Shown in pieces: positions 15,091-32,635 of a DNA stretch of 64,000 nt. Made by a program: the position numbers and the translations under genes. How positions within the stretch are numbered: the stretch's first letter is position 1; every line of letters begins with the position of its first letter. The notes under the pieces were generated by a model. It had not been told where the DNA came from. It did not search any database and saw only the letters and a list, made by a program, of their open reading frames with translations. The DNA comes from Mayamaea pseudoterrestris. Taxonomy: Eukaryota. Location of the stretch: assembly GCA_027923505.1 (NCBI GenBank), contig BROI01000006.1, positions 806,001 through 870,000 of the forward strand. The letters are read 5' to 3'.

Positions 15091-15546
15091 TTTCTTGTCA
15101 AGAAATGAGGCTTTCCGATGACGCGACTCGTGAAAATTGCGAATGGTGGCGCACCTACGAACCTTGCCAGATTTGACCGCCATGGTGCACCGCTCGTTTC
15201 CGCCGCAGCATGATTCCCCGATTAGGGTTAAGGTTTCGAAACCGCCGCGCCGGCGCGCCACGATGCATCCACCATGATTCACTCGCCAGTTTCGAGCCGG
15301 AGGTGCACTATGTAATCCTTGCCCGCCTCTATTTATCTGTATGAAGCGACTGCCTACTATCAATGAAGCATGCTTCCGAGATATGAATCTCCTAGTGTAG
15401 CTAGCGCAAGCCACGTGCTTGCCTCAGTTTTCCGAAATTCACACTTTCATTGTCGAATTCTCGCTCTGGATCTTGAGCAAGCTTCATTGATTTTTCAAAA
15501 GCAGCAAGACAAGTGCAACGAAGAAAGAAACAACCATTCAACCATC

Positions 15547-18429
15547 ATGGAAGCGCTTGCTAAACTCTCCGCGAGATGCAACGCCGACAACGTTTGCACC
15601 TCGGCCATGAACAGTCGCGGCCTCATGGACGAAACCAACAAGACCATTGTCGAAATGACGTTGGAAGTAGACTACAGCAAGCACTGTACGACGCTGTACA
15701 AGATGATTGAGGAGCAAGATTGGGAAACGGTGGCCAAGTTTTTGGATACTGGTTACTGGATTGGATCGCTCTGGGCGGACAAGCTCACGCCAGTGGAGCA
15801 AGCCAAAACCTGGGTCACGCGGTTCGACCCAGAGGATACCACCAAGATCAAGTGGAGTCAGCTGCCACTGCACTTGGCCATTGTCATTGAAGCTCCAGTT
15901 TCCATTATCCGGCGTCTTGTGGAGACCTACCCCAAGGCTCTCAAGTGCACCGACGATGAACATATGCTGCCCTTCCATTTGGCCATGCGTCATGGAGCCA
16001 CGGATGAAGTCGTCGACTATTTGTTGCAAGGTTTTCCGGATGCCGTCAATGTCAAGGGCAAGAACAGTCGTTCGGCTCTGGAGTGTGCCATGCGCTCACG
16101 CAAAAAGGCGCGGGCCCGCATGTTGACCGTCTTTTTGGACAAGACGCGGGGCAACCAAGTGGCCAATCTGGAATTGGTCAAGACGCAGCTCGACGAAAAG
16201 AACAAGTTCTTGGACCAGCTTCACTCGCAGCTGTCAAAGATTGAAACGGCCAAGACGCAGGTGGAGGATGACTTGGCGCACAAGATTAACCAGTTGCTCG
16301 ACACCAAGGCTGAACTCGAATCCAAGCTGGAGGAACTCAAGCATGAAAAGGAATCGCTCGAGTTGAGTTCGGCCAAAATGGCTGGACAGATGCAGCACAC
16401 CAAGCTCTTTCACGAGATTGAAACGGAGCGCAAGATTGCGGCGTTGGAGGTTCAGAAGAAGGAACTCGAAGCGGCCGAGCGCCAAATCCAGGAGGATGAA
16501 GTCCGTCTCCACTCGAACCTTGCCGTCATTGAGATGCGCGTTGGCGAAACAATGTCGGTCGAAGACATGGATGCGCTCAAGAAGGACCTTACAAGCTTTC
16601 AGACCTACCGCTTGGAGCATACCCGGTCGCGCGCCCTTGAAGACATTAAGAGTCTCAAGCTGACGATTCACAATGAACTCGAAAAGTGCCAAGGCGCGCA
16701 CATGGATGAAATTCGTGCCATTCAGCAGTCGGTCCACGTGATGGAGGAGTACGACACGAGCAAGGCGTCGGACGAGGAGCTGACCGAGCTTCGGGCGGAA
16801 CTGGACAAGCTCAAGGCTGCCTTGCGCGACAGGACGGAGGCTCAGAGTCTTCGTGCGGACTTGCTTGCTTTGAAAACGTCGCTCGAGTCGCACGTCAAGT
16901 CGTTTTGCTTTCACGACAAGGAAACCAAAGCTGAGTTGAACAAGACCATTGAAGCTATAACCGAGTCGCACTTGAATGAGCTCGACTACACCGGTCTTGT
17001 CCAGATGCGCCAGGACGTTACCAAGCTGAAGAGGAGCGCCCAAGAAAAGGCTCTCGTCTTTCAGGCCAAGAAGGACCTTGCCGAAATCCAGACTCTGCTT
17101 GCGGCGCAGATCAAGGCCGCTGGTAGTGGGGACGACCTTGTCGAGAAGAAGAAGGCGATTGACAGCATCGAAAAGGGGGGTCTTGAAGGAAAGTCCAGCG
17201 AAGAACTTGTCAGTTTGCAGATTGAAATGATCAATCTCAAGGAAGGCCTCAAGCGAGATGGAGTTTTGCTTCATAAGAAGGAACTCGTGACGGCTCTCAA
17301 GAAAGATATTTCCCTTGAATTGTCGAGTGCTAGTGGAAAACACAAGCATACTTTGAACGCGATGAAGAAGGAGATTGACGCTCTTGACAAGTCCAACGAC
17401 ATGGACAGCGTTCGTCTCGACACCTTGACGAAACATCGTCAAACGTTGGAGGGTCTGACGAAGCAGCGCATCGAAGCCAAACAGATCAAGGACGAACTTT
17501 CGCAGCTGCAAAAGCTTGTGGCGACACAGATGAAGCAAAGCAACGCCGAGTCGAAGCGCGAGCTTACTGCCTTCCATCGTGAACTGGAGCAAATTGCGAG
17601 TCAAAAGCTCGACGAGAAGAATCGCATTGAAATTGAAGCAATCAAGGCCAACATTGAGTCAATTAAGCATCAAGTCTATAACTCCAAGGAAGAGTTCTTC
17701 ACCAAACTCGAGTTTAATTCTTTAAAGCAGGCACTCGAGGAAAGAATTGAGTCAACCAAAGGTGAAGCGCATCTGGAGTTTCTCACAATGAAGCAAACGC
17801 TGGATAGCATCAACCTTGAAACTGTTAACGTCAAGGGCAAGGAAGGATGGTGTCAGCTAAAGGCAGAGATTGAAGCCTTGAAGGTAGATCTGATGCGGAA
17901 GGATCTCATCAACCTAAAGAAGGAGCTGGTTGAGGAACGCACAGCAAGCAAGAATGACAAGCAGAAGGAAGGACTCTCTCGGGCAATTGACTCGATCAAG
18001 ACTGATGGTATTGATTCTGTCTCCCTGGGAGAGTTGTTGCTAATGAAAAAGGCAGCCGTGGCGTACCGAAGCCAAGTCAAGATTGCAAAGAAGTCCTTGT
18101 TTCGTTGTTTTTTCAAGCGCAGCAAGAAGCAGCAACAGACGAGTGCAGCTGTCACAGCCAGCAAACAAGACTGCATCCAGCCATTCATGCCTCCAAGGGC
18201 CCCGACTGCCGATGAAATTTCGCACACTTCTTCCGAGCCTGACAGTGAAAGCAACGCTAGCATTCCGAAGTCGGTCCGCACCATGTCTTATGGAAACGTC
18301 TCGGGTTCGAACTTGAAGTCCGCCTCGGACGTCGAGAACCTCAAGTCACCGAGTTTTATGGCATCCAATGAAGGCAAGGAATTAACGACGGCAGACGTTA
18401 TGCCATCTTCGATCACGGTGGAACAGTAA
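15547..18429 (+). CDS. Diatom ankyrin-like (dAnk-like) protein with very long coiled coil
   Basis: Probable ATG 15547. EVDYSKHCTTLYKMIEEQDW..AKTWVTR..WSQLPLHLAI, TDDEHMLPFHLA; about 650 aa of heptad-rich sequence; basic KKSLFRCFFKRSKK near the C-terminus. Confidence 0.8.
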   Translation: MEALAKLSARCNADNVCTSAMNSRGLMDETNKTIVEMTLEVDYSKHCTTLYKMIEEQDWETVAKFLDTGYWIGSLWADKLTPVEQAKTWVTRFDPEDTTKIKWSQLPLHLAIVIEAPVSIIRRLVETYPKALKCTDDEHMLPFHLAMRHGATDEVVDYLLQGFPDAVNVKGKNSRSALECAMRSRKKARARMLTVFLDKTRGNQVANLELVKTQLDEKNKFLDQLHSQLSKIETAKTQVEDDLAHKINQLLDTKAELESKLEELKHEKESLELSSAKMAGQMQHTKLFHEIETERKIAALEVQKKELEAAERQIQEDEVRLHSNLAVIEMRVGETMSVEDMDALKKDLTSFQTYRLEHTRSRALEDIKSLKLTIHNELEKCQGAHMDEIRAIQQSVHVMEEYDTSKASDEELTELRAELDKLKAALRDRTEAQSLRADLLALKTSLESHVKSFCFHDKETKAELNKTIEAITESHLNELDYTGLVQMRQDVTKLKRSAQEKALVFQAKKDLAEIQTLLAAQIKAAGSGDDLVEKKKAIDSIEKGGLEGKSSEELVSLQIEMINLKEGLKRDGVLLHKKELVTALKKDISLELSSASGKHKHTLNAMKKEIDALDKSNDMDSVRLDTLTKHRQTLEGLTKQRIEAKQIKDELSQLQKLVATQMKQSNAESKRELTAFHRELEQIASQKLDEKNRIEIEAIKANIESIKHQVYNSKEEFFTKLEFNSLKQALEERIESTKGEAHLEFLTMKQTLDSINLETVNVKGKEGWCQLKAEIEALKVDLMRKDLINLKKELVEERTASKNDKQKEGLSRAIDSIKTDGIDSVSLGELLLMKKAAVAYRSQVKIAKKSLFRCFFKRSKKQQQTSAAVTASKQDCIQPFMPPRAPTADEISHTSSEPDSESNASIPKSVRTMSYGNVSGSNLKSASDVENLKSPSFMASNEGKELTTADVMPSSITVEQ

Positions 18430-18888: not shown

Positions 18889-19848
18889 TCACTTTGCCTT
18901 TGTTTTGCGTCTCGTTCGACTGGCAATGCTGCGAATTCCCGACGAGACCGAGCCCTTGATCTTTCTAATACCATCCGACCTTGTCTTGGAGATAGTGGAC
19001 GTCTCGAGATGCTGCGACGGTATCGTTGATTGTTTAATTATAGGTTTCGGCGGTGCCGCGCGAAAACGCTGCTTCTTCAAGTCCTCTAGCTCCTTGCGAT
19101 TGCTCAACAACTCTAGCAAAACATCGGGTAGCGAGCCGTTTAGAACGTCTATCGGTTTGGCAAAATTTGTCTTCCGCTGTGCCATCTGGAGAAGCTCTCT
19201 CCAATTTTGATCCACCTCTGCTCGCGCATGCTTGCTCACTTGGTCGACTACAGCTTCAAATACAACTCCTCGTGCCTTATTTGGACCCAGCTCACAGCAC
19301 TGGTATGGAAGTCTTCCTCCCATACCGCGTTCATTAATCGACGACGGAAATGGCTCCAAGAGAAGCGCCAAGACCTGGTCAGAAGCTCCGAACCCAAAAG
19401 CCAAGTGTATCGGCAGCATTCCTTCATTATCTGTCGACTGAATTGACTTTGGATAGCACTCGACCAATTTGCGAATGACAACAAAGGGTGCATTGTAACT
19501 AATAGCCGCGTGGAGAGGCAGCTGACTCCACTCTGGCACCTTTTTGTGGTCGCTGTAGCTCGTCACCCAAGTCTTTACCTGTATCTCCGGCGCTGGGCTC
19601 TTCATATATTCATGCGCATTGGCCAGTATGGAGTTGCTCCACTTGCCAGTCGTCAGAAACATCAACACTCCCTCCCAATTCTCCTTCTCAATGGCGCGAA
19701 AGAGTGGCGTCGCTCGTCGATACGACGTGTTGAGTACATCGCTGTCATCGGACGAGTGAGTATGGCCTGTCGATATGGTGTATTTCGTAAATTCCTCGTC
19801 GTCGTCCAAGTTTTCGGGTGTGCCGCAGTTGCACCCAAAGGCCGCCAT
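18889..19848 (-). CDS. Diatom ankyrin-like (dAnk-like) protein, short form
   Basis: Probable ATG 19848 (MAAFGCNCG). ATPLFRAIEKENW..KTWVTS..WSQLPLHAAI, TDNEGMLPIHLA; basic C-terminal tail. Confidence 0.78.
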   Translation of the reverse strand: MAAFGCNCGTPENLDDDEEFTKYTISTGHTHSSDDSDVLNTSYRRATPLFRAIEKENWEGVLMFLTTGKWSNSILANAHEYMKSPAPEIQVKTWVTSYSDHKKVPEWSQLPLHAAISYNAPFVVIRKLVECYPKSIQSTDNEGMLPIHLAFGFGASDQVLALLLEPFPSSINERGMGGRLPYQCCELGPNKARGVVFEAVVDQVSKHARAEVDQNWRELLQMAQRKTNFAKPIDVLNGSLPDVLLELLSNRKELEDLKKQRFRAAPPKPIIKQSTIPSQHLETSTISKTRSDGIRKIKGSVSSGIRSIASRTRRKTKAK

Positions 19849-20298
19849 GGTAGATTGTGATCCAGAGAAGTGAACGCTTATTCGACCCAGCTTTCTGACC
19901 GCCACGATCAATACGGTACAAGTGCCAGCAAGAGGGCGAAAAACGGAGCAGTTTTCCTTGTAAGGGCACGGCAGTCCCAACATGAATCTTGCATTTTGGT
20001 TGCTTAGGCAATCGCTCGCCAAAATGAGTGTCAGTGGCGTCGTTCCCGAACTTTGAGAAAGTTACTTAGGCACATTTAATATTGCCTACCCAGAGCGAGC
20101 GATGTAGTATAGTGTAATAAGTACTCTGTGCGTCGTCACGTAACGCCCCGCCTCTGCGTCGCAATTGTGGCGGAGCGGCACTACTTACCGCGCTTACTAG
20201 CGCGCTCATCGCGCCGACAGACGCGGCAATCATCACGACGGCATCGATAGAGGAAACGTCAACTTTCAGTCTAAGTTGTAACTTTTTAAGAATAAAAA

Positions 20299-20927
20299 AT
20301 GATTGAAGTAGCAGCTCTATTACTATGCAAACTCGGCGGTCAAGGCGGAAGCGCTGACGAAATAAAAGCAGTTTTGGAGGCGGCTGGTGTTGAAGTGAAT
20401 GAGGAAGCATTGACAAAATTGACGGGAGACATGGACGGAAAGGATTTGAACGAATTGCTCGCAGCAGGAGCAGAAAAGATCAAGGATGTTCCATTTGGAG
20501 GCGGCGGCGGTGGCGGCGGCGGAGGAGGTAGGTGACGAATGATATTTTGACATGCCAACACATCGCATGTGTCGACGAAAGAGTAAAACGAGCATACAAG
20601 AAATAGCTTTTTTGGCGAATCGGAAGAGCATGGAAGTAGCTAGGATTACGAGAAAAGGTTTATGGGAATTTTAAATGTGATTGCAGGCGAAAATTGGCGC
20701 GGATCTGCAGTCGCTGCCCAGACAAAACGAAAATATTAAGCTTGTTTACACGCAATCATCGCTCACCTTTCTGTTTACTTTGTCATACAGGCGGCGATGA
20801 CGCTGGTGCAGGAGGCGCAGCGGCAGCCCCCAAGGAGGAAGAAAAGGAGGAGGAAGAGGAGCTTGACTTGGCCGGAGGCATGGACATGTTTGGAGGTGAG
20901 GCCGGAGGCGGCGGTGGCGACTATTAA
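20299..20927 (+). CDS. RPLP2: 60S acidic ribosomal protein P2 (exons 20299-20527, 20791-20927)
   Basis: AALLLCKLGG..SADEIKAVLEAAGVEV..GKDLNELLAAGAEK, Gly/Ala hinge, acidic EEEKEEEEE..GGMDMFG tail. Phase-1 intron 20528-20790 (GTAGGT...ACAG). Confidence 0.88.
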
Positions 20928-21153: not shown

Positions 21154-23517
21154 CTATTGGCCGTCGGTTCTACGACGTCGTGGTTTTGTAGCTGCCGCAG
21201 GTTGTTGCGATGGTACTGTAGTGACCGGCGCACGCCGTCGCCCCTTGCTCGATGCAAGTTCCTGCCGCCGGCGTTGATCAACCACTCGCTCCTTTTCCTC
21301 CTCAGTCAAGCCGGGAGGAACAAAAAGATGCGTTGTGCCGGGAACATTACGGCGGCGCTCAGCGTTCGACAAGAGGTCCTGGCCGGCAGCGTCGGCAGAA
21401 ATAACCTTGTTGACAGTGTCCAGTAGCAAATCGGCTTCAATGAATGGAATTTGGACAACTGCTTCCCATCCTTGTCGCTTGCCATTAGCATCAGACTGAA
21501 AGTCATTGGGATAATACTCCGTCAAGGGTGACGAAGGGTGTATCATGAGCTCAGCGAGTGGTTTCGGGAGCAGACTTGCAGATTGTGGAGGAAGCACTGA
21601 AAGCAACTGAGCAAGGCTGTTAAATGGCGTGCCCTTTTCAAAAGCAAAACGGCAATATCCTTCCTCATCCGCTTGATCATAAAACTCGTGCAGATTGACC
21701 ATGTCTGTACATAGGGGCGCATATAAGTACGGGAAGAACCAGTTCCATGACATGCATCCGTGATGATAGTAATTCAGACACCAATGCAAGCCTTCCAAAT
21801 ATTCGCGGACATGCTCTCGGCGACGATATAGTGTCCGGCTACGGTCCTGAGGCTTCCAACCGAGCTTCGATTCGTAATAAAAGTCGCGATACGATCTGCA
21901 CAGATTGTCTGGATGACGATTGCGAAATGCTCGGTTCCCGGTCGGCGCCATTGGAAGCGCTTCCGGTGCTGGCACTTCGCTTCCTTTGCGATTGGCAAGC
22001 GCCGCCGCCGGTGGAGTCGGTTTGCCGCTAAAGTGCGTTCCGTAAAAGTCCTCTTCTTCATCCTCGTCTTCGCTCGTTAGCTTCCATCCGGGTTCATTCT
22101 CCTCCAATCCGCGACGCTTAAAATGTTCCTCTTCATAGACAGCCAAATTATACAGCAGCTGCTCCAATCGTTGCGGGTGAATCATATCCTCCTTTGTCAG
22201 ATATCCACCCCAATCCGGCATGAGTTCCATGTAGCTTCCAGTCATGAGCGACAAGGCTCCTCCGTCAATCTCCAAGTGCGGCGTATGCGGGAGGAAGTCG
22301 TTTCCGACAAGCATACACATGAACACAAAGTCGTCCACAATACGATCCAAATCATACTTGACCTTGAGTTTGCCTTGCTCGGCGAGCTGCTGAAATTGCA
22401 AACCAAGCATTTCTCGCAGCAAATTCAACTCCAATAGCTCAAAATCGTTATTGTTGTAATCAAGCATATCCTTCTTTTTGCGATACTTGGATCGTCCACG
22501 ACCAGCCATGACGACGGACATTTTCTCGCGCAACAGCATAAACTTTGGCTCGTGCGTGATTAACCCAAGCATGATGAGATCAGCATCCAAACCGTACAAA
22601 ACGTGGGAATAGCCGGGCTTCCAGTGCCCGCGGGTTGCTGCAACGCTTTCCACGCCATGGCCCCTGGCTTGGTAGTAGGCTTCTTTTGATTCGCGGATAA
22701 AATCCATGACCTTGTGCTCGCCCTCACCTGGAACATCGGGTCCACTCACAATGACATCGGCTCCGTCCTTCCAAAATGAATCGCTGCATAACAAGCACAA
22801 GTATACTAGTGTCAGGATCGATCAAAAGACAAAAGTTTGAAATAAATTTCGACTGCAGTCAGTTACTCACGTTTCCATTTTAAATTCAACCCACTTGCGC
22901 ATTGCCAGAGACAGTTTCAGCATGAAATCCGTCCCCGGCGTAATGCAGTTGCTGTCAAATCGATTCGACGTATCCAGTTTTCCATTGCGCGCCAACAGTT
23001 CGCCCGCCAGTTGCTCGGCCTCCTTGGCGGACCGAAAGCGGCGGGACCGTTGCTGGTTCATCTTGGCGCGCGGCGCCACGCCATCCACCGCCAAGTACAA
23101 GACTTTTTGCGGTCGTACCAATTTGTAGATGCGATCAACGTAGAGAAATATCTTTTTGAACATGGCAGTTTCGTCCAAAACAATGATTTCGTCGTTGTTG
23201 TTTCCATGCGTGGCTGGATGAATGATTCCGTTCATGTCGAGGTAAAAATTGTCAATCGACAAATCGTCGTTCAAGCCTTCCTCGAGTTGGCGACTCAGAA
23301 TGTCAGGATATTGATCAGTGAGCCAGCGAAACATTTTTGGAATACCAAATAGTGAAGTCGATGTATATGGTGCGCTTGATGAAACTTGATTATGTATTCT
23401 CTGCTTGTCCGTGATGGAGGTTGCGCCAATGTTTCGCTGCGGAAGAACAAACGCTGCCGTCGGCGCCATTGCCACGAAAATGGCGGCTGCCATCAGCGTG
23501 ACAGGAGATTGATACAT
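21154..23517 (-). CDS. XRN-family 5'-3' exoribonuclease with putative bipartite plastid presequence (exons 23517-22871, 22783-21154; 758 aa)
   Basis: GIPKMFRWL, YLDMNGIIH, AVDGVAPRAKMNQQRSRRF, FDSNCITPGT, PGEGEHK, YGLDADLI, GNDFLP, WFFPYLYAP, QLLSVLPP, GKRQGWEAVV. Intron 22870-22784 restores the frame. Confidence 0.92.
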
Positions 23518-23877
23518 GAGTAGCAATTGCGTAGCAAGGTATAAGAAGATTAAGTTCGATGCACAAGTTTTAGCAGCTTTGCAAGACAATCAGAGTAGGT
23601 CGAAAGTCGAATGATGGGATGTTGATCGCTTGGCTGTCGCAGCAGATGTTTCAGTACCGCTACGAGCTCACTCCGACACACTCGGGCACCTCTGTGAGAA
23701 ATTCGAAAAATGAAGTATGCAAACAAGCTACAAATACATAATCAATTTGAGGTATTAACCCGATTGTGCACTACGTATGTTTGGTCGTCAAGGCTCGCCG
23801 CCGCATGCGAGCCTCGTTCTCTGTTTCGGCCACGATTGCCATCCTCCTGCATCGAAGCCACCAACAAATTGTCCTCG

Positions 23878-24531
23878 TTACGCAGTCTTTTGTTTCAAAC
23901 TCTTTCGTTTCGATTTGACACCACTCAATCGCCTCTTGAAAGCAATTTGGTAGAACAAAATGGCGTTAATGACATGCGTCGACCAGCACAAGACGCACAG
24001 CTCCTTCAGCACCACGGTCAATTGGTAGGCCAGGAAGAGACTCGTCAGCATGGCCAGCGAGGAAACCAATGGATTCAAATATTTGCGAAAGGACGCCATG
24101 GGCATGTCGACAAAGAGCAATACCCATGAGTAGTACAAGAAACCAACAACAGCGTTTGGTAAGTCAAGCAAGCTGTCGCGCGGCACCAAGCCAGAGTAAC
24201 TCAGCAGTTTGCCGACTGGAAGTGTAAAGACGGTGCTGTTGTTGTATTGAAGAGAGTTTGTGAATGTGTGAGCAATAAATGTGTGAGATTGGCAGGTTCT
24301 TTGCTTTTCCTTGTGATTCGCTCTCAAGATTCGCTTGGCGTCTACTCATGACAAGAAAATTATCAAAACAATCTGTATTTTAACATACCTACAACTTGCC
24401 TGCAAGGCATCAATGTCACAAAGAGCCGTAAACTCCTCGCCAGGCCGCAAATGGTGCATTTTATATTCGACAAAAATGGCGTAGAGGGACAGAATCAAGC
24501 CGACAAAGGCAATGTTGCGAACAAACGACAT
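23878..24531 (-). CDS. Vitamin K epoxide reductase, VKORC1-like (exons 24531-24389, 24235-23878)
   Basis: ALCDI..ASCSTVF loop cysteines, PNAVVG, redox CxxC (LCVLCW), several hydrophobic helices. GT-AG intron 24388-24236. Confidence 0.88.
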
Positions 24532-25002
24532 GGTTTATCTGCGAAATGCGGTCTCGTATGCTGGTCTTTGATGTGATTCTACAAGTAAAGAGCTTTTGTT
24601 ACACTTTCCAAGTCTCAAGCCAGTGACATTAACGTTCGCTGACCTTTCTTGTTTGTGCTGTTTTTGCGCTGTTGTTGTTGCTGCGAAACAAAGAAGAAAA
24701 CGGACGATCCGCCATGGCCGCCGCGTCAGATCAGAACCGGTCAGACTGTAATAACACCAGTGTGACACGTCCATCCATCGCCCGCTTGATTGCGACAACC
24801 ACGAGATCCAATTCTTTGAAAGGCTGCTGCCAAGCAACAAGCCGAATCGATACATCATTGATCTTGCTTTTGTCGATTCTAGCAGGAAGATATTGCTTAA
24901 ACGTTACAAAGGAGCTATAACTGTAGACTGATCCTGATTGTAGAATTTGATCCATAGTTGATCAAGCAACAAAACAAAACAACTACACAGACAGATTCAC
25001 AA

Positions 25003-27787: not shown

Positions 27788-30700
27788 ATGTCTTCGACGA
27801 GCAATACTCCGACGACAGGAGCGGCGTCGAGCGGTGGAGGTGCACCTCCCGCTCCGCCAGCAAGCGAAGGAAACCGACGCAACCGTCATTATCGTCGTGG
27901 GAATCGTGCTGGGAATCGTTCCGGGAATCAAGGCAATGGTAACAGACTCAACGGACCGAGTCGTGCGCCGAGTGGAAATTTCCAAGGAAGCGAGCCGACG
28001 CTCGCTGGATTCATCTACGACTATAACGGTTCGCGCGATCCCGATGGATTCATCCGTACGACGAACGAGATCATCACTTTCGTCGGGCGCTCCTACAAGA
28101 AATATACCAAGGAGCTGCTCAAGGGCATGCGCAACGTGGAACTGGAGATTCCTGACGAGCCTGCACGTCCAACGAAGGATGCCGACACGACGGACTCGGA
28201 CTGGTCCATAATGCTCGAGGAATACAAGGCCGACAAGAAAGAGCATGTCGAGCGCGTGCGTGTATACTCCGACTTCCTCGCTGGTCTCTACGCCGTGTTG
28301 CATGGACAATGCACGGAGCGTATGAAGGATCGTGTCAAGTCGCACGCCAAGTTCCGAGACGCCGAGGAGGACACGGACGGAATTAAGTTGCTGGCGATTA
28401 TCAAGGAGATCTCGCATACGTACGAAGGGCGCTGCAAACTTGTGGATCAAGTCGTGGACATTCAAGCTGAGTTGTTCGGACGTACTCAAGGAGCGCGCGA
28501 AAGCCTGCAGAAATATTACGAAAGCATGGTCACGCTGGCAGACGTGGCGAAGGCGGTTGGCGTCACGATGCACAACGAGATTGTGGCGTTGAACATTGCC
28601 AAGGATGACAATCGTAACAAGGCGAACAAGGAGGATATCAAGGCCGCCGAAGAGCTCGAGCTTGCGATGCTTTTCGTGCGTGGCGCAACGGGCGAATACG
28701 CTGGGTATTGCAAGCACTTGCGCAACTGCTACCTCGACGGGCACGACAACTTCCCGTTGACGATCCACGATGCATACAACATCATGCAGCGTCGTGAGCA
28801 TGCGGATGGAGAAGCCACGTTGCCAACGAACGAGGGCGTGGCGTTTCACACGACTGGTACAGCGCGTGACCCTCCCAGATGCTGGACCTGTCAACAGGTT
28901 GGTCATGTGCAGCGAGACTGTCCTACGAGAACGGAGTCTACGGAGAGTGCGCCGGCTGCAGAGGCTAGTGGGGCGCAGCACTTCACGCTGGGTAGCGAGG
29001 AAGAAAGCGATGACGACGATGAGGTCGGATACATGTTCGCGCAGCCGCCGAAGGTGAACATCTCGAAGAAGGCTGTGCTCTTGGACAATCAGTCGACAGT
29101 GGATCTGTTCTGCAACGCCAAGATGCTGACGAACATTCGCCCGGTGCCAACGTGGATGGTGATCAAGTGCAACGCTGGTACAGTAAGGACGAACATGATG
29201 GGCGACCTGGAGGGCTATGGTCCGGTGTGGTGGTATCCGCAGGGACTGGCGAACATTTTGAGTTTGGCGCAAGTCCGCAAGAAGTTTACCGTGGAGTATC
29301 TCATGCACGGCGTGGATCGTCCAATGTTCGTTGTGGAGAAGCCGGATGGTAAGCAGCGAGAGTTTGTCGAGACTGACTCTGGGCTGTATGTTTGCGAGAG
29401 CTTTTCGAAGGGCAAGCGCAGCGATGTCAAGGATGGAGTGGCGATGTTGACTACGGTAGACGATAACCGTACTAACTACACCAATGATGACTATTTACGC
29501 GCTGTTAGAGCTAGGGAACTGCAAATCAAAATTGGACGGCCAAGCCTCAAGGATTACCTGCGCATCGTTACTAGCAATCAGTTGCCGAACTGTCCTGTGA
29601 CGAAGGCCGACATCCTGGCTGCTGAGCACATCTTTGGACCAGATGTTGGCTCGTTAAAAGGAAAGACGACGCGTCGCGCGTCGCATCTGGTGAAGCCTGC
29701 GATTGTTGAGCAGCTTCCACCGGCTATCATGAGTCGCTATCGAGACGTTACTCTTTGTGCTGACATCATGTATATCAACAAAGTCCCTATGTTGGTGACG
29801 TTCTCCCGCAGCATTCGTTTTGCTACGGTTGAGGTGATTCAAAACCGTACGCTTCCGGTTATGTTGAAGGCAATCGAGTCTGTGTTGAAGATTTACGCAC
29901 GCGGTGGGTTCCGTGTCGTCGCGGCTCTGATGGATGGGGAGTTCGCTCCAATGCTTGGCGCGTTGGCTGATCTCGGAGTGGCGCTCAATGCGACATCTGA
30001 GGATGAACACGTTGGCGAAATTGAACGTTTTATCCGTGTCGTGAAAGAACGGGTGCGCGCGACATACAACACGTTGCCATTTAAGCACGTGCCGGCACGC
30101 TTGGTTATCGAAATGACGAAGTCTGCCGTGTTTTGGTTGAATGCGTTTCCGAACGAGCGTGGCATTTCGAAGGATCTCAGTCCACGCACTATTGTGACTG
30201 GTCAGACAGTTGACTTTAATCGGCATTGCAAGTATGAATTTGGTCAGTATGTGCAAACGCATGAGTCGCACAGCAATGACATGCAGGCGCGCACGATCGG
30301 TGCGCTGGCTCTGCGCCCGACTGGTAATGTGCAGGGTGGGTTTTATTTCCTCAGTTTGTCTTCGGGCAAAGTTCTGAATCGTGGGCACGCTACGCCTTTG
30401 CCCATGCCTGATGATGTCATTGAGCGCGTGCATCGTCTCGCTCGTCAACAGAAGGCCAATCCGGGCATCGTGTTCATGGACCGCCACCGTGTTGCGGAGG
30501 CTGCTGAGCCAGTCATGTGGCACGAAGATGACGCCGAGGATGATGATGACTCTGATTATGATGACGACGCTTCTCGCGGTGACGACGACTCTGCCGGCGG
30601 AAGCGAAGGAGTGAATGCGACCGATGACGACGACGACGACGACGATGGTGCTGACGGCGCAATCGAAGGAGTGCCGAACGACGAGGATGGTGAGGCCATT

Positions 30701-32635
30701 GACGGCGAACTTGACGACGCGCCAGCCGTGGATGATGGCGAAATTGAAGGAGTGCCCGATGAAGGCGAAATTGAAGGAGTGCCAGCTGCTGCAGACGAAG
30801 AGGATTTCGATGCGCGCTATGGCCCACGCACTGGTCGGTATGGCCTGCGTGCGCGCAAACCTCGCTCGTTCGCTCATTTGTTCACGCTCGACGCTGCAGA
30901 GGAAGTGTCGGAGCCACTCGTCACGGCACAGATGAATATGCGACAAGGTTTAAAGGCTTTTGGCGATGCTGGAGTGGAGGCAGTGCGCAAGGAAATGCAG
31001 CAGCTACACGACAGGCACGTCATGAAGGCAGTCACCCAATGCACTCTGACTCCGCAGCAGCGCAAGGACGCTCTGGCGTATTTGATGTTTCTCAAGCGCA
31101 AGAGATGCGGGACTGTGAAGGGACGCGGATGCGCGGATGGACGCAAGCAACGAGCATACACTGCAAAGGAAGACGCAGCATCTCCAACGATAGCGACAGA
31201 GGCCATCTTTCTGACAGCTATCATTGACGCTATGGAAGGGCGCGAGGTTGCTGTGGTTGATGTACCGGGTGCTTTCATGCAAGCGGAAATGGATGAGTTG
31301 GTGCACGTTCGTTTCACTGGGAAGATGGTGGAGCTACTGTTGGAAATTGATCGCGAGATGTACGAGCCTTGCGTCACAATGGAGAATGGCGAGAAAGTCA
31401 TGTATGTTGAATTACTCATGGCGCTTTATGGTACGCTTCGAGCAGCGCGACTATTCTGGGAGAAGTTGTCCGCAAAATTGCTTGAGTGGGGCTTCGAGAA
31501 GAACCCGTACGATCCGTGTGTGTGCAACAAGATTGTCAATGGGAAGCAAATCACCGTGGGATGGCACGTGGACGATTTGAAGATTTCGCACGTCGACGTG
31601 AGCGTAGTGGATGAGTTCATCGCGCAGATGGATGAGGAGTTTGGCAAGGAGACTCCAATGAATAAGTCACGCGGAAAAGTGCACGACTACCTCGGCATGG
31701 TATTGGACTATACTAAGCCTGGAGAAGTAGCAATCAACATGGTTGACTATGTGAAGAACATCCTGCATCATGCGCCAGACGACATGGATGGAACGGCAGC
31801 TACTCCGGCAGCCAGTCACTTGTTTCAGATATCGGAAAATCCTGTCATGTTGAGCGAAGCGAAGAAGCAGATTTTTGTGACGATTGTGATGCAGTGTCTG
31901 TATCTGAGTCAGCGAGCGCGACCGGATATTCGCACAGCGATTTCTTTCTTGAGCACGAGGCTGCAGCAGCCTGACGAAGACGACTATAAGAAGGCTGCAA
32001 GAGTGATTAAATATTTACGCGGAAGCGTGGACATGGTGTTGACGCTGAAGGCGGACCAGTCCAGGATAGTCCAGTGGTGGGTGGATGCGTCGTACGCGGT
32101 GCACCCAGACATGAAGGGTCACACTGGTGGAACAATGACACTTGGCCAAGGATCAGTGTACAGTACGTCGGCTAAACAGAAGTTGGTAACAAGAAGCTCG
32201 ACGGAGAGCGAAGTTGTGGGAGTTCATGATGTGCTACCGCAGTTGCTGTGGACAGGATATTTTCTGAAGGCGCAAGGTTTCGGGGTCAAAGACACGAAAT
32301 TGTATCAAGACAATATGAGTTCAATGCTGTTGGAAAAGAATGGCAGAAGCTCAAGTACAAAGCGCACGCGACACATGAATGTTCGGTACTTCTTTGTGAA
32401 AGATCGCGTGGCAGCTGGTGAAGTCAACATTGAGCATTGTCCGACCGGAGACATGGTCGCGGATTTCTTCACGAAACCATTGCAGGGAGCCCAGTTTGGC
32501 AAGCTCCGCAACCTGGTTATGAATCTGGCCTCGAGCAGTAAGTACTACTCGGCCCAAAGGAGTGTGTTGAGCATGGATGAGAACCCAAACCGAAGCGGCA
32601 GCGGTGACGTCACGAAGACGGTCACATTTAAGTAA
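27788..32635 (+). CDS. Copia gag-pol polyprotein (1615 aa)
   Basis: CCHC knuckle CWTCQQVGHVQRDC; protease LLDNQST; integrase CADIMY/MDGEF/EHVGEIER; RT DVPGAF, ALYG, WHVDD; RNase H VDASYA, SSTESE, YQDN, ADFFTKP. No stops or frameshifts. Confidence 0.96.
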   Translation: MSSTSNTPTTGAASSGGGAPPAPPASEGNRRNRHYRRGNRAGNRSGNQGNGNRLNGPSRAPSGNFQGSEPTLAGFIYDYNGSRDPDGFIRTTNEIITFVGRSYKKYTKELLKGMRNVELEIPDEPARPTKDADTTDSDWSIMLEEYKADKKEHVERVRVYSDFLAGLYAVLHGQCTERMKDRVKSHAKFRDAEEDTDGIKLLAIIKEISHTYEGRCKLVDQVVDIQAELFGRTQGARESLQKYYESMVTLADVAKAVGVTMHNEIVALNIAKDDNRNKANKEDIKAAEELELAMLFVRGATGEYAGYCKHLRNCYLDGHDNFPLTIHDAYNIMQRREHADGEATLPTNEGVAFHTTGTARDPPRCWTCQQVGHVQRDCPTRTESTESAPAAEASGAQHFTLGSEEESDDDDEVGYMFAQPPKVNISKKAVLLDNQSTVDLFCNAKMLTNIRPVPTWMVIKCNAGTVRTNMMGDLEGYGPVWWYPQGLANILSLAQVRKKFTVEYLMHGVDRPMFVVEKPDGKQREFVETDSGLYVCESFSKGKRSDVKDGVAMLTTVDDNRTNYTNDDYLRAVRARELQIKIGRPSLKDYLRIVTSNQLPNCPVTKADILAAEHIFGPDVGSLKGKTTRRASHLVKPAIVEQLPPAIMSRYRDVTLCADIMYINKVPMLVTFSRSIRFATVEVIQNRTLPVMLKAIESVLKIYARGGFRVVAALMDGEFAPMLGALADLGVALNATSEDEHVGEIERFIRVVKERVRATYNTLPFKHVPARLVIEMTKSAVFWLNAFPNERGISKDLSPRTIVTGQTVDFNRHCKYEFGQYVQTHESHSNDMQARTIGALALRPTGNVQGGFYFLSLSSGKVLNRGHATPLPMPDDVIERVHRLARQQKANPGIVFMDRHRVAEAAEPVMWHEDDAEDDDDSDYDDDASRGDDDSAGGSEGVNATDDDDDDDDGADGAIEGVPNDEDGEAIDGELDDAPAVDDGEIEGVPDEGEIEGVPAAADEEDFDARYGPRTGRYGLRARKPRSFAHLFTLDAAEEVSEPLVTAQMNMRQGLKAFGDAGVEAVRKEMQQLHDRHVMKAVTQCTLTPQQRKDALAYLMFLKRKRCGTVKGRGCADGRKQRAYTAKEDAASPTIATEAIFLTAIIDAMEGREVAVVDVPGAFMQAEMDELVHVRFTGKMVELLLEIDREMYEPCVTMENGEKVMYVELLMALYGTLRAARLFWEKLSAKLLEWGFEKNPYDPCVCNKIVNGKQITVGWHVDDLKISHVDVSVVDEFIAQMDEEFGKETPMNKSRGKVHDYLGMVLDYTKPGEVAINMVDYVKNILHHAPDDMDGTAATPAASHLFQISENPVMLSEAKKQIFVTIVMQCLYLSQRARPDIRTAISFLSTRLQQPDEDDYKKAARVIKYLRGSVDMVLTLKADQSRIVQWWVDASYAVHPDMKGHTGGTMTLGQGSVYSTSAKQKLVTRSSTESEVVGVHDVLPQLLWTGYFLKAQGFGVKDTKLYQDNMSSMLLEKNGRSSSTKRTRHMNVRYFFVKDRVAAGEVNIEHCPTGDMVADFFTKPLQGAQFGKLRNLVMNLASSSKYYSAQRSVLSMDENPNRSGSGDVTKTVTFK

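Follow-up and report, generated by a model that had tools for sequence, protein, structure and literature searches.

A short XRN-family exoribonuclease with a predicted plastid presequence in the diatom Mayamaea pseudoterrestris, likely derived from the red-algal endosymbiont

In the chloroplasts of plants and green algae, RNase J trims RNA in the 5′-3′ direction up to bound protein blocks and removes read-through transcripts. These roles are described in part in PMC4717168 and PMC4079212. The eukaryotic XRN enzymes, XRN1 and XRN2 (Rat1), require a 5′-monophosphate, and triphosphate and capped ends are not substrates (PMC9512700). Short XRNs also occur in red algae and in cryptophyte nucleomorphs, where the gene is called dhm; all 8 of the nucleomorph genomes tabulated carry it, classed under RNA metabolism and not plastid-associated (PMC9548191 Table S1). 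Here we describe a gene on the minus strand of a 64,000-nucleotide stretch of the Mayamaea pseudoterrestris genome (the window; assembly GCA_027923505.1, contig BROI01000006.1, positions 806,001 to 870,000), whose product combines an XRN core with a predicted plastid presequence. It likely represents a short XRN from the cytosol of the red-algal endosymbiont, imported into the plastid stroma to act as a 5′-3′ exoribonuclease in the place of RNase J.

Read from the window DNA, the gene has two exons and a product of 758 residues. This product matches a database protein (P0001, 758 residues) at 100%, named at its source as a 5′-3′ exoribonuclease of this diatom. Contigs from runs X3 and X4, two of four runs compared from one study, skip exactly the 87-nucleotide intron; the run type is not on record, and the skipped intron is the sole sign that RNA was read. 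One X4 contig (23309-23558) covers the ATG and the GIPK codons, and an X3 contig extends over 23224-23476. These runs lack coverage at 23583-23824, which we do not interpret as marking where the transcript begins. The five base differences near the gene start in these contigs are all synonymous and too few for a selection test. An upstream exon or earlier start is excluded by an in-frame stop 5′ of the ATG with no in-frame ATG between them, and an upstream exon is further disfavoured by the VKOR-family gene ending at 23878.

By every sequence and fold test the protein belongs to the XRN family, and it is neither XRN1 nor XRN2. XRN_N (275 bits, starting at residue 58) and XRN_M (274 bits) score over the Pfam cut-off, and no other Pfam family matches at E ≤ 0.1. 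Alignment to human XRN1 (9e70) and Drosophila XRN (2y35) recovers the seven acidic metal ligands (D94, D145, E236, E238, D282, D284 and D378), the basic 5′-phosphate pocket (K152, Q156, R159 and R160) and the His/Trp stack (H100 and W655). Each position presumably has the role of the reference residue to which it is matched. The ligands, pocket and stack are described as XRN elements in PMC9512700. The structure model has a predicted local distance difference test score (pLDDT) of 78.9, with low confidence for residues 6-58, and its remainder adopts the XRN fold; Foldseek matches it to 9e70 (TM-target 0.86, root-mean-square deviation (rmsd) 3.5). Fold matches comprise XRN and FEN-type nucleases, and the metallo-β-lactamase and β-CASP fold of RNase J was not among them. 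Core, fold, acidic residues, pocket and stack are thus shared with XRN1 and XRN2, whereas the Mayamaea protein has a 57-residue bipartite presequence, no initiator Met before its Gly and a predicted plastid site. It lacks the domains that follow the core in XRN1, and it falls in a clade separate from both XRN1 and XRN2. An earlier, sequence-only reading of this stretch had noted 57 residues ahead of GIPKMFRW, intact catalytic acidic motifs and the absence of the long XRN1 C-terminal region; all three points hold, and the Gly of GIPKMFRW is residue 58.

Within the presequence, Kyte-Doolittle means over 11 residues rise as high as 2.55 and mark a hydrophobic stretch; TAA-FVLP is found at residues 20-26 and STSLF at residues 53-57. 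A crude test, which is not SignalP, requires a hydrophobic 9-mer and then a small residue with F, W or Y at +1; by hydropathy and motif the Mayamaea sequence has such a predicted signal peptide with an aromatic +1 residue. The segment that follows is Ser/Thr-rich and acid-poor (S+T 0.25, K+R 0.10, D+E 0.04), as in the transit peptides of ASAFAP-type stromal precursors, whose signal peptide is followed by F, W, Y or L at +1. Phe at +1 is described as required for passage through the inner three membranes (PMC4329603, PMC3774753). The stromal peptidase motif carries Leu at −2 and hydroxylated residues at −3 to −6, with Leu(−2) the strongest feature of the diatom motif (PMC3774753). Relative to the catalytic Gly, Leu at −2 and Thr or Ser at −4 are found in 46 of 46 diatom-type orthologues, and positions −5 and −6 are mostly Ser or Thr. 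Because these features match the published motif, the cut is predicted directly before Gly58, where it would restore the start of a cytosolic XRN. The first helix of XRNs shifts during catalysis, and losing its first four residues lowers activity (PMC9512700). Both the signal-peptide and the transit-peptide cleavage sites are predicted. Taken singly, the presequence is unremarkable, since 196 of 2000 shuffles of the Mayamaea sequence pass the crude test.

The conservation of the presequence, unlike any one presequence, is remarkable and exceeds chance. Among 93 ochrophyte-type N-termini pooled from three homologue searches, 78 have extensions of at least 30 residues, seven have 2-29 residues and eight start at Met-Gly. 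Sixty-nine of the 78 long extensions pass the crude test, against 8.8% of shuffles, with Phe (62), Trp (4) or Tyr (3) as the aromatic +1 residue that the test requires. Of the 103 XRN1 and XRN2 controls, 96 begin with Met-Gly, and the two that carry long extensions both fail the test. The homologue set that supplied the diatom-type rows lists 120 matches, of which 49 contain the first helix; the 71 starting further in were dropped. Forty-six of these 49 have at least 30 residues in front, three have 2-29, and Met precedes Gly in none. As a check against gene-caller bias, 80 loci were also read in raw DNA: 17 had no recognisable first helix, 42 were XRN1/2-type, three were of red or nucleomorph type, and 18 were others of the studied protein's clade with ochrophyte-like or unlabelled best matches, of which 17 pass the crude test. 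Among the named ochrophytes, it occurs for example in Seminavis, Nitzschia, Cylindrotheca, Pseudo-nitzschia, Stephanopyxis, Ectocarpus, Tribonema and Chrysoparadoxa. At the level of sequence, then, the plastid-type bipartite presequence proposed earlier is upheld, as is the expectation that orthologues keep it. Separately, an unlabelled GC-rich lineage (L046, L050, L055 and L067; P0132, P0173, P0243 and P0398) forms its own XRN sub-clade, with signal and transit-like extensions that retain Met before Gly.

Phylogenetic analysis sets the gene apart from the host enzymes. The Mayamaea genome has five XRN_N loci: one XRN2-type (L001), two XRN1-type (L002 and L003), the gene studied here and a divergent copy (L005). 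The separate XRN1 and XRN2 genes anticipated by the sequence-only reading are therefore present, and L001, L002 and L003 all begin Met-Gly. The two XRN1-type loci (L002:1378-3156 and L003:1435-4155) branch together, and the N-terminal domain of L003 has long acidic insertions. The nearest non-ochrophyte relatives of the studied protein are short XRNs of the red algae Porphyridium, Gracilariopsis, Pyropia, Galdieria, Cyanidium and Cyanidioschyzon, together with proteins of about 550 residues that cluster with the 'dhm exonuclease' of Cryptomonas. The unrooted LG+G4 tree, built from 32 rows, has a 100/100 branch that sets 17 of them (red algae, nucleomorphs, ochrophytes, Vitrella and two without a label) apart from L001-L003; the XRN2-type clade (100/100) contains L001 and not the studied protein. 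A 65-row LG+C20 quick tree gives the same split, and the Shimodaira-Hasegawa-like approximate likelihood-ratio test (SH-aLRT) gives 100 for the red clade in two quick trees. The chromerid Vitrella brassicaformis (P0382, annotated from Met-Gly) sits within the ochrophyte clade at 100/100.

An origin from host XRN1 was rejected: L002 and L003 branch elsewhere, and a tree constrained to unite the ochrophyte and Vitrella rows with host XRN1 is worse by 125 log-likelihood units under LG+G4 (approximately unbiased (AU) test, p-AU 4.7e-63). Since the trees are unrooted, the direction from red alga to ochrophyte is taken from the known direction of endosymbiosis. The long XRN1 that Cyanidioschyzon merolae carries as well falls elsewhere in the tree, so the short red-lineage XRN is a separate paralogue. 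The Mayamaea protein shares both its clade (100/100) and its short architecture with the short XRN of red algae (C. merolae XP_005538218) and with dhm of cryptophyte nucleomorphs. Both of these begin at Met-Gly without a targeting peptide, whereas the ochrophyte copies gained one. Among the red and nucleomorph copies, Met-Gly is the start in 39 of the 42 non-ochrophyte-type rows of one homologue set. At two red-type genomic loci (L017 and L018) a stop lies 18 codons upstream and an earlier Met is absent. This distribution indicates that the presequence was likely gained after transfer to the host nucleus, and the gene itself likely derives from the cytosolic exonuclease of the red-algal endosymbiont. 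The sequence-only reading had proposed a host eukaryotic nuclease retargeted to the plastid for RNA maturation or decay; a role in plastid RNA is still the best reading, but the host provenance fails.

The nuclear genome of Mayamaea appears to leave room for such an enzyme. One nuclear assembly, which does not include the plastid genome, was surveyed exon by exon with profiles. For RNase J, TIGR00649 matches CPSF73 alone in this assembly, PF22505 reaches E 0.59 and PF17770 finds nothing; RNase E/G models give nothing at E ≤ 0.001 (best E 0.55). Of 14 control genomes, between 6 and 13 gave matches when searched in the same way for RNase J and RNase E/G. PNPase (L008:1177-3810), a single-domain, two-exon RNase III of Mini-III-like type (L097:1049-1764) and YbeY (L098:1180-2004) were found, each with a bipartite-type N-terminus, read by eye, of the signal, aromatic and transit-like pattern. 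A second, divergent PNPase-like gene (L009) is also present. Neither an RNase J motif nor two Arabidopsis identifiers were matched in a portion of the PMC6723447 supplement, a search that had no positive control and is uninformative.

Orthologues of the Mayamaea gene are already tabulated as predicted plastid proteins. Among the papers listed by a literature search over titles and starts of abstracts, with subscription papers mostly outside its scope, none describes a plastid XRN. A chloroplast form of Chlamydomonas Xrn1 has reportedly been suggested; a literature search for 'CrXrn1' gave no matches. The Phaeodactylum tricornutum orthologue 34033 is listed in PMC6723447 Table S1 as a predicted plastid protein of group 3bk, with origin 'Ancestral' and a DNA repair filing, and a second row of that table has C. 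merolae as its top match; ancestral ochrophyte plastid protein groups are defined in PMC5462543. The Thalassiosira pseudonana orthologue Thaps3a_20608 is SignalP-positive and 'Plastid, high confidence' by ASAFind in the PMC6683858 supplement, where it is listed among 217 plastid-fraction proteins and in whole cells, and not in mitochondria. In these tables the group 3bk proteins are filed under DNA repair or merely named, and under the terms searched the main texts do not discuss them: PMC6723447 has no mention of XRN, exonuclease or ribonuclease, and PMC6683858 none of 'exoribonuclease'. The available portion of PMC7154860 mentions neither diatom, red alga nor XRN. The gene is thus catalogued in supplementary tables and undescribed in the accompanying texts, and its predicted location sets it apart within the XRN family.

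A second candidate occurs in the same genome. L005 (L005:1393-3657, G000:C6:1137140 onward; also placed at G000:C6:1137248 onward) is a divergent XRN with a signal, a Phe and a ...RTSLF end ahead of its Gly. Among 120 homologues, 100 contain the first helix and 73 have at least 30 residues in front; 60 of these 73 extensions pass the crude test and 59 place Leu at −2. Depending on the acidic motif, 108 to 120 of the 120 homologues retain it, the named matches are diatoms, and a pattern search of L005 did not find the usual Trp motif. That this separate family also ends its transit peptide at Gly supports the proposal that a free Gly start is required. Its model contains an α-β-β-β-α insert, for which ranks 18-50 of a fold search are nearly all proteins bearing a double-stranded-RNA-binding domain (dsRBD), the best at Z 8.5 with rmsd 3.1 over 74 aligned residues. 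A dsRBD fold is accordingly a lead from the model, at a middling Z; the domain is seen by fold comparison alone, with Pfam detecting it in 0 of 40 family members and phmmer finding nothing with the insert. A quick tree places L005 beyond the red clade at the end of a very long branch, which leaves its origin uncertain.

Judged by its sequence and that of its relatives, the studied protein is very probably imported into the plastid, and a place in the stroma is only slightly less assured. It probably works there as an RNA exonuclease, and a true replacement of RNase J is slightly favoured. The likeness to RNase J is claimed for function alone, in the proposed job of trimming RNA 5′-3′ as far as bound proteins and clearing read-through transcripts. 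The folds are unrelated, β-CASP in RNase J and XRN here, and the endonuclease activity of RNase J has no counterpart in the Mayamaea protein. In the mechanism we propose, residues 1-22 would direct the protein into the lumen of the endoplasmic reticulum (ER), and Phe23 with the Ser/Thr-rich transit peptide would carry it across the inner three membranes. A stromal peptidase would then cut after ...T-x-L-x, freeing Gly-Ile-Pro-Lys, the same start as that of a cytosolic XRN after Met removal. Because XRNs accept 5′-monophosphate ends only, primary triphosphate transcripts would be spared until cut or dephosphorylated, and digestion would begin at ends that endonucleases generate, for example the Mini-III that has a presequence. 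The enzyme would trim the 5′ ends of rRNA and mRNA processively until halted by a bound protein or a structure, and it would remove cleavage fragments and read-through transcripts, with PNPase acting from the 3′ end.

Several observations weigh against this account. At −1, 30 of the 46 diatom-type orthologues have Phe and seven have Leu, whereas PMC3774753 reports no large aliphatic residue at this position of the stromal peptidase motif. Twelve of the 120 matches in the set with the diatom-type rows, counted by eye, start at the equivalent of the internal Met62 ('MFRW'), and the eight ochrophyte-type rows annotated from Met-Gly include Vitrella, Undaria and Phaeomonas records; both sets are presumed to be truncated gene calls. 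The branch order within the red clade is unresolved in the 32-row tree. The proteomic match of Thaps3a_20608 consists of one peptide with 2 spectra and 0.72% coverage (PMC6683858), and this model of 1390 residues is about 630 residues longer than the Mayamaea protein, so that the peptide may belong to a fused neighbour and is given little weight. RppH, a candidate for converting primary transcripts to substrates, has no match over the cut-off in the Mayamaea assembly. The RNase J and E negatives come from one nuclear assembly, and a plastid-encoded RNase E is possible.

Other locations or tasks can be proposed for the protein. It might stop in the remnant of the red-algal cytosol, where the nucleomorph dhm presumably works, and act on RNA there, as orthologues in red algae and nucleomorphs without a targeting peptide could suggest; ASAFind and HECTAR can also select periplastid proteins (PMC5462543). 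However, the Phe that most of the passing extensions have at +1 is described as needed for the inner three membranes, and the Leu(−2) of stromal-peptidase type is kept throughout the diatom-type orthologues. Ochrophytes, moreover, are not known to have a nucleomorph or periplastid ribosomes, and no RNA is known in their periplastid space on which such an enzyme could act. The nucleomorph is kept by cryptophytes alone (PMC4329603), and we regard a periplastid site as quite improbable. A stromal protein could alternatively serve mainly the plastid chromosome, by removing RNA primers or R-loops or by dislodging stalled RNA polymerase, and have little part in shaping transcript ends. The basic C-terminal tail and the DNA repair filing in PMC6723447 Table S1 would suit such a role, and the plastid fraction that lists the orthologue had lost most of its soluble stroma (PMC6683858), which fits a nucleoid- or membrane-bound protein. 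The filing, however, stems from automatic KOG labelling, the active site has the residues of an RNA-type XRN, phosphate pocket and His/Trp stack included, and the vacant niche in the Mayamaea genome is that of RNase J and E; a chromosomal role is therefore improbable.

In favour of a host XRN1 duplicate retargeted to the plastid, long XRN1 proteins are the closest sequences once the red clade is set aside. The L005 family may fit such a story instead, although it sits on a very long branch. For the studied gene the rejected join with L002 and L003 and the same short paralogue beside a long XRN1 in red algae make it exceedingly improbable. The extension might also be partly bypassed, placing some of the protein in the cytosol or nucleus with the Arg-rich tail as a nuclear signal. 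Met precedes Gly in 15 of 40 ochrophyte-type rows of one homologue set, and brown algae and their relatives could thus make a short form; none of the 49 diatom-type rows has this Met. A start at the next Met, residue 62, would delete the first four residues of the core, a loss that lowers XRN activity (PMC9512700), and three other XRNs in the Mayamaea genome already begin Met-Gly. A dual location of this kind has little probability. The preferred reading, which we hold as probable, is a stromal exoribonuclease of red-algal descent.

The features of the locus and its surroundings are collected in Table 1. No functional link to the XRN is seen among the neighbours, which encode VKOR, a 60S acidic ribosomal protein, ankyrin proteins, fibrillarin and a copia-type element. 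The two ankyrin-repeat genes are convergent and have similar N-terminal motifs, and one has a long coiled-coil-like region.

Table 1. Features of the XRN gene and neighbouring genes (window positions)
Feature	Position	Strand	Content or basis
Exon 1	23517-22871	−	ATG at 23517
Intron, 87 nt	22870-22784	−	GT-AG; skipped in X3/X4 contigs, joint 22783/22871; unmentioned in the sequence-only reading
Exon 2	22783-21154	−	Stop at 21154
Predicted ER-type signal peptide, residues 1-22	23452..23517	−	Hydropathy scan; hydrophobic core, TAA end; site TAA-FVLP by crude test
Predicted transit peptide, residues 23-57	23347..23451	−	Phe at +1, Ser/Thr-rich, stromal-peptidase-like STSLF end
Exon 1 remainder	22871..23346	−	Predicted mature N-terminus Gly58, helix α1, D94, H100, D145, K152/Q156/R159/R160; XRN_N match starting at residue 58 (Pfam); aligned with 9e70 and 2y35; motif positions
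Exon 2 catalytic core	21304..22783	−	E236/E238, D282/D284, D378, XRN_M helical domain, W655
Basic C-terminal tail (residues 710-758) and stop	21154..21303	−	pLDDT <50 for 726-758
VKOR-family gene	23878-24534	−	Ends 361 nt upstream of XRN start
60S acidic ribosomal protein gene	20296-20927	+	Convergent with XRN gene
Ankyrin-repeat gene	15370-18429	+	
Ankyrin-repeat gene	18889-19983	−	
Copia-type retrotransposon open reading frame, 1615 residues, uninterrupted	27788-32635	+	Zinc knuckle, RVT_2

On a broader view, which we hold tentatively and at slightly less than even chances, algae with red secondary plastids may have replaced the cyanobacterial RNase J and RNase E that open plastid RNA decay with eukaryotic XRNs. 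The cytosolic enzyme of the endosymbiont would have moved to the stroma before the ochrophytes diverged and would be shared with chromerids and another secondary-plastid lineage; diatoms would have added a second, independently recruited XRN, whose dsRNA-binding insert may serve antisense or structured RNA. If the main reading holds, a bacterial-type gene-expression system would be served by a eukaryotic nuclease, and a protein of the endosymbiont cytosol would have been rerouted across two further membranes instead of being lost with the nucleomorph. The gene would also mark plastid transfer between lineages, namely ochrophytes, Vitrella and the unlabelled group. The papers searched do not describe how the 5′ ends of plastid RNA are set and degraded in diatoms and brown algae, and the gene offers a named and conserved candidate with an intact active site. 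This candidate comes with a testable gap in the Mayamaea nuclear genome, where RNase J and RNase E were not found.

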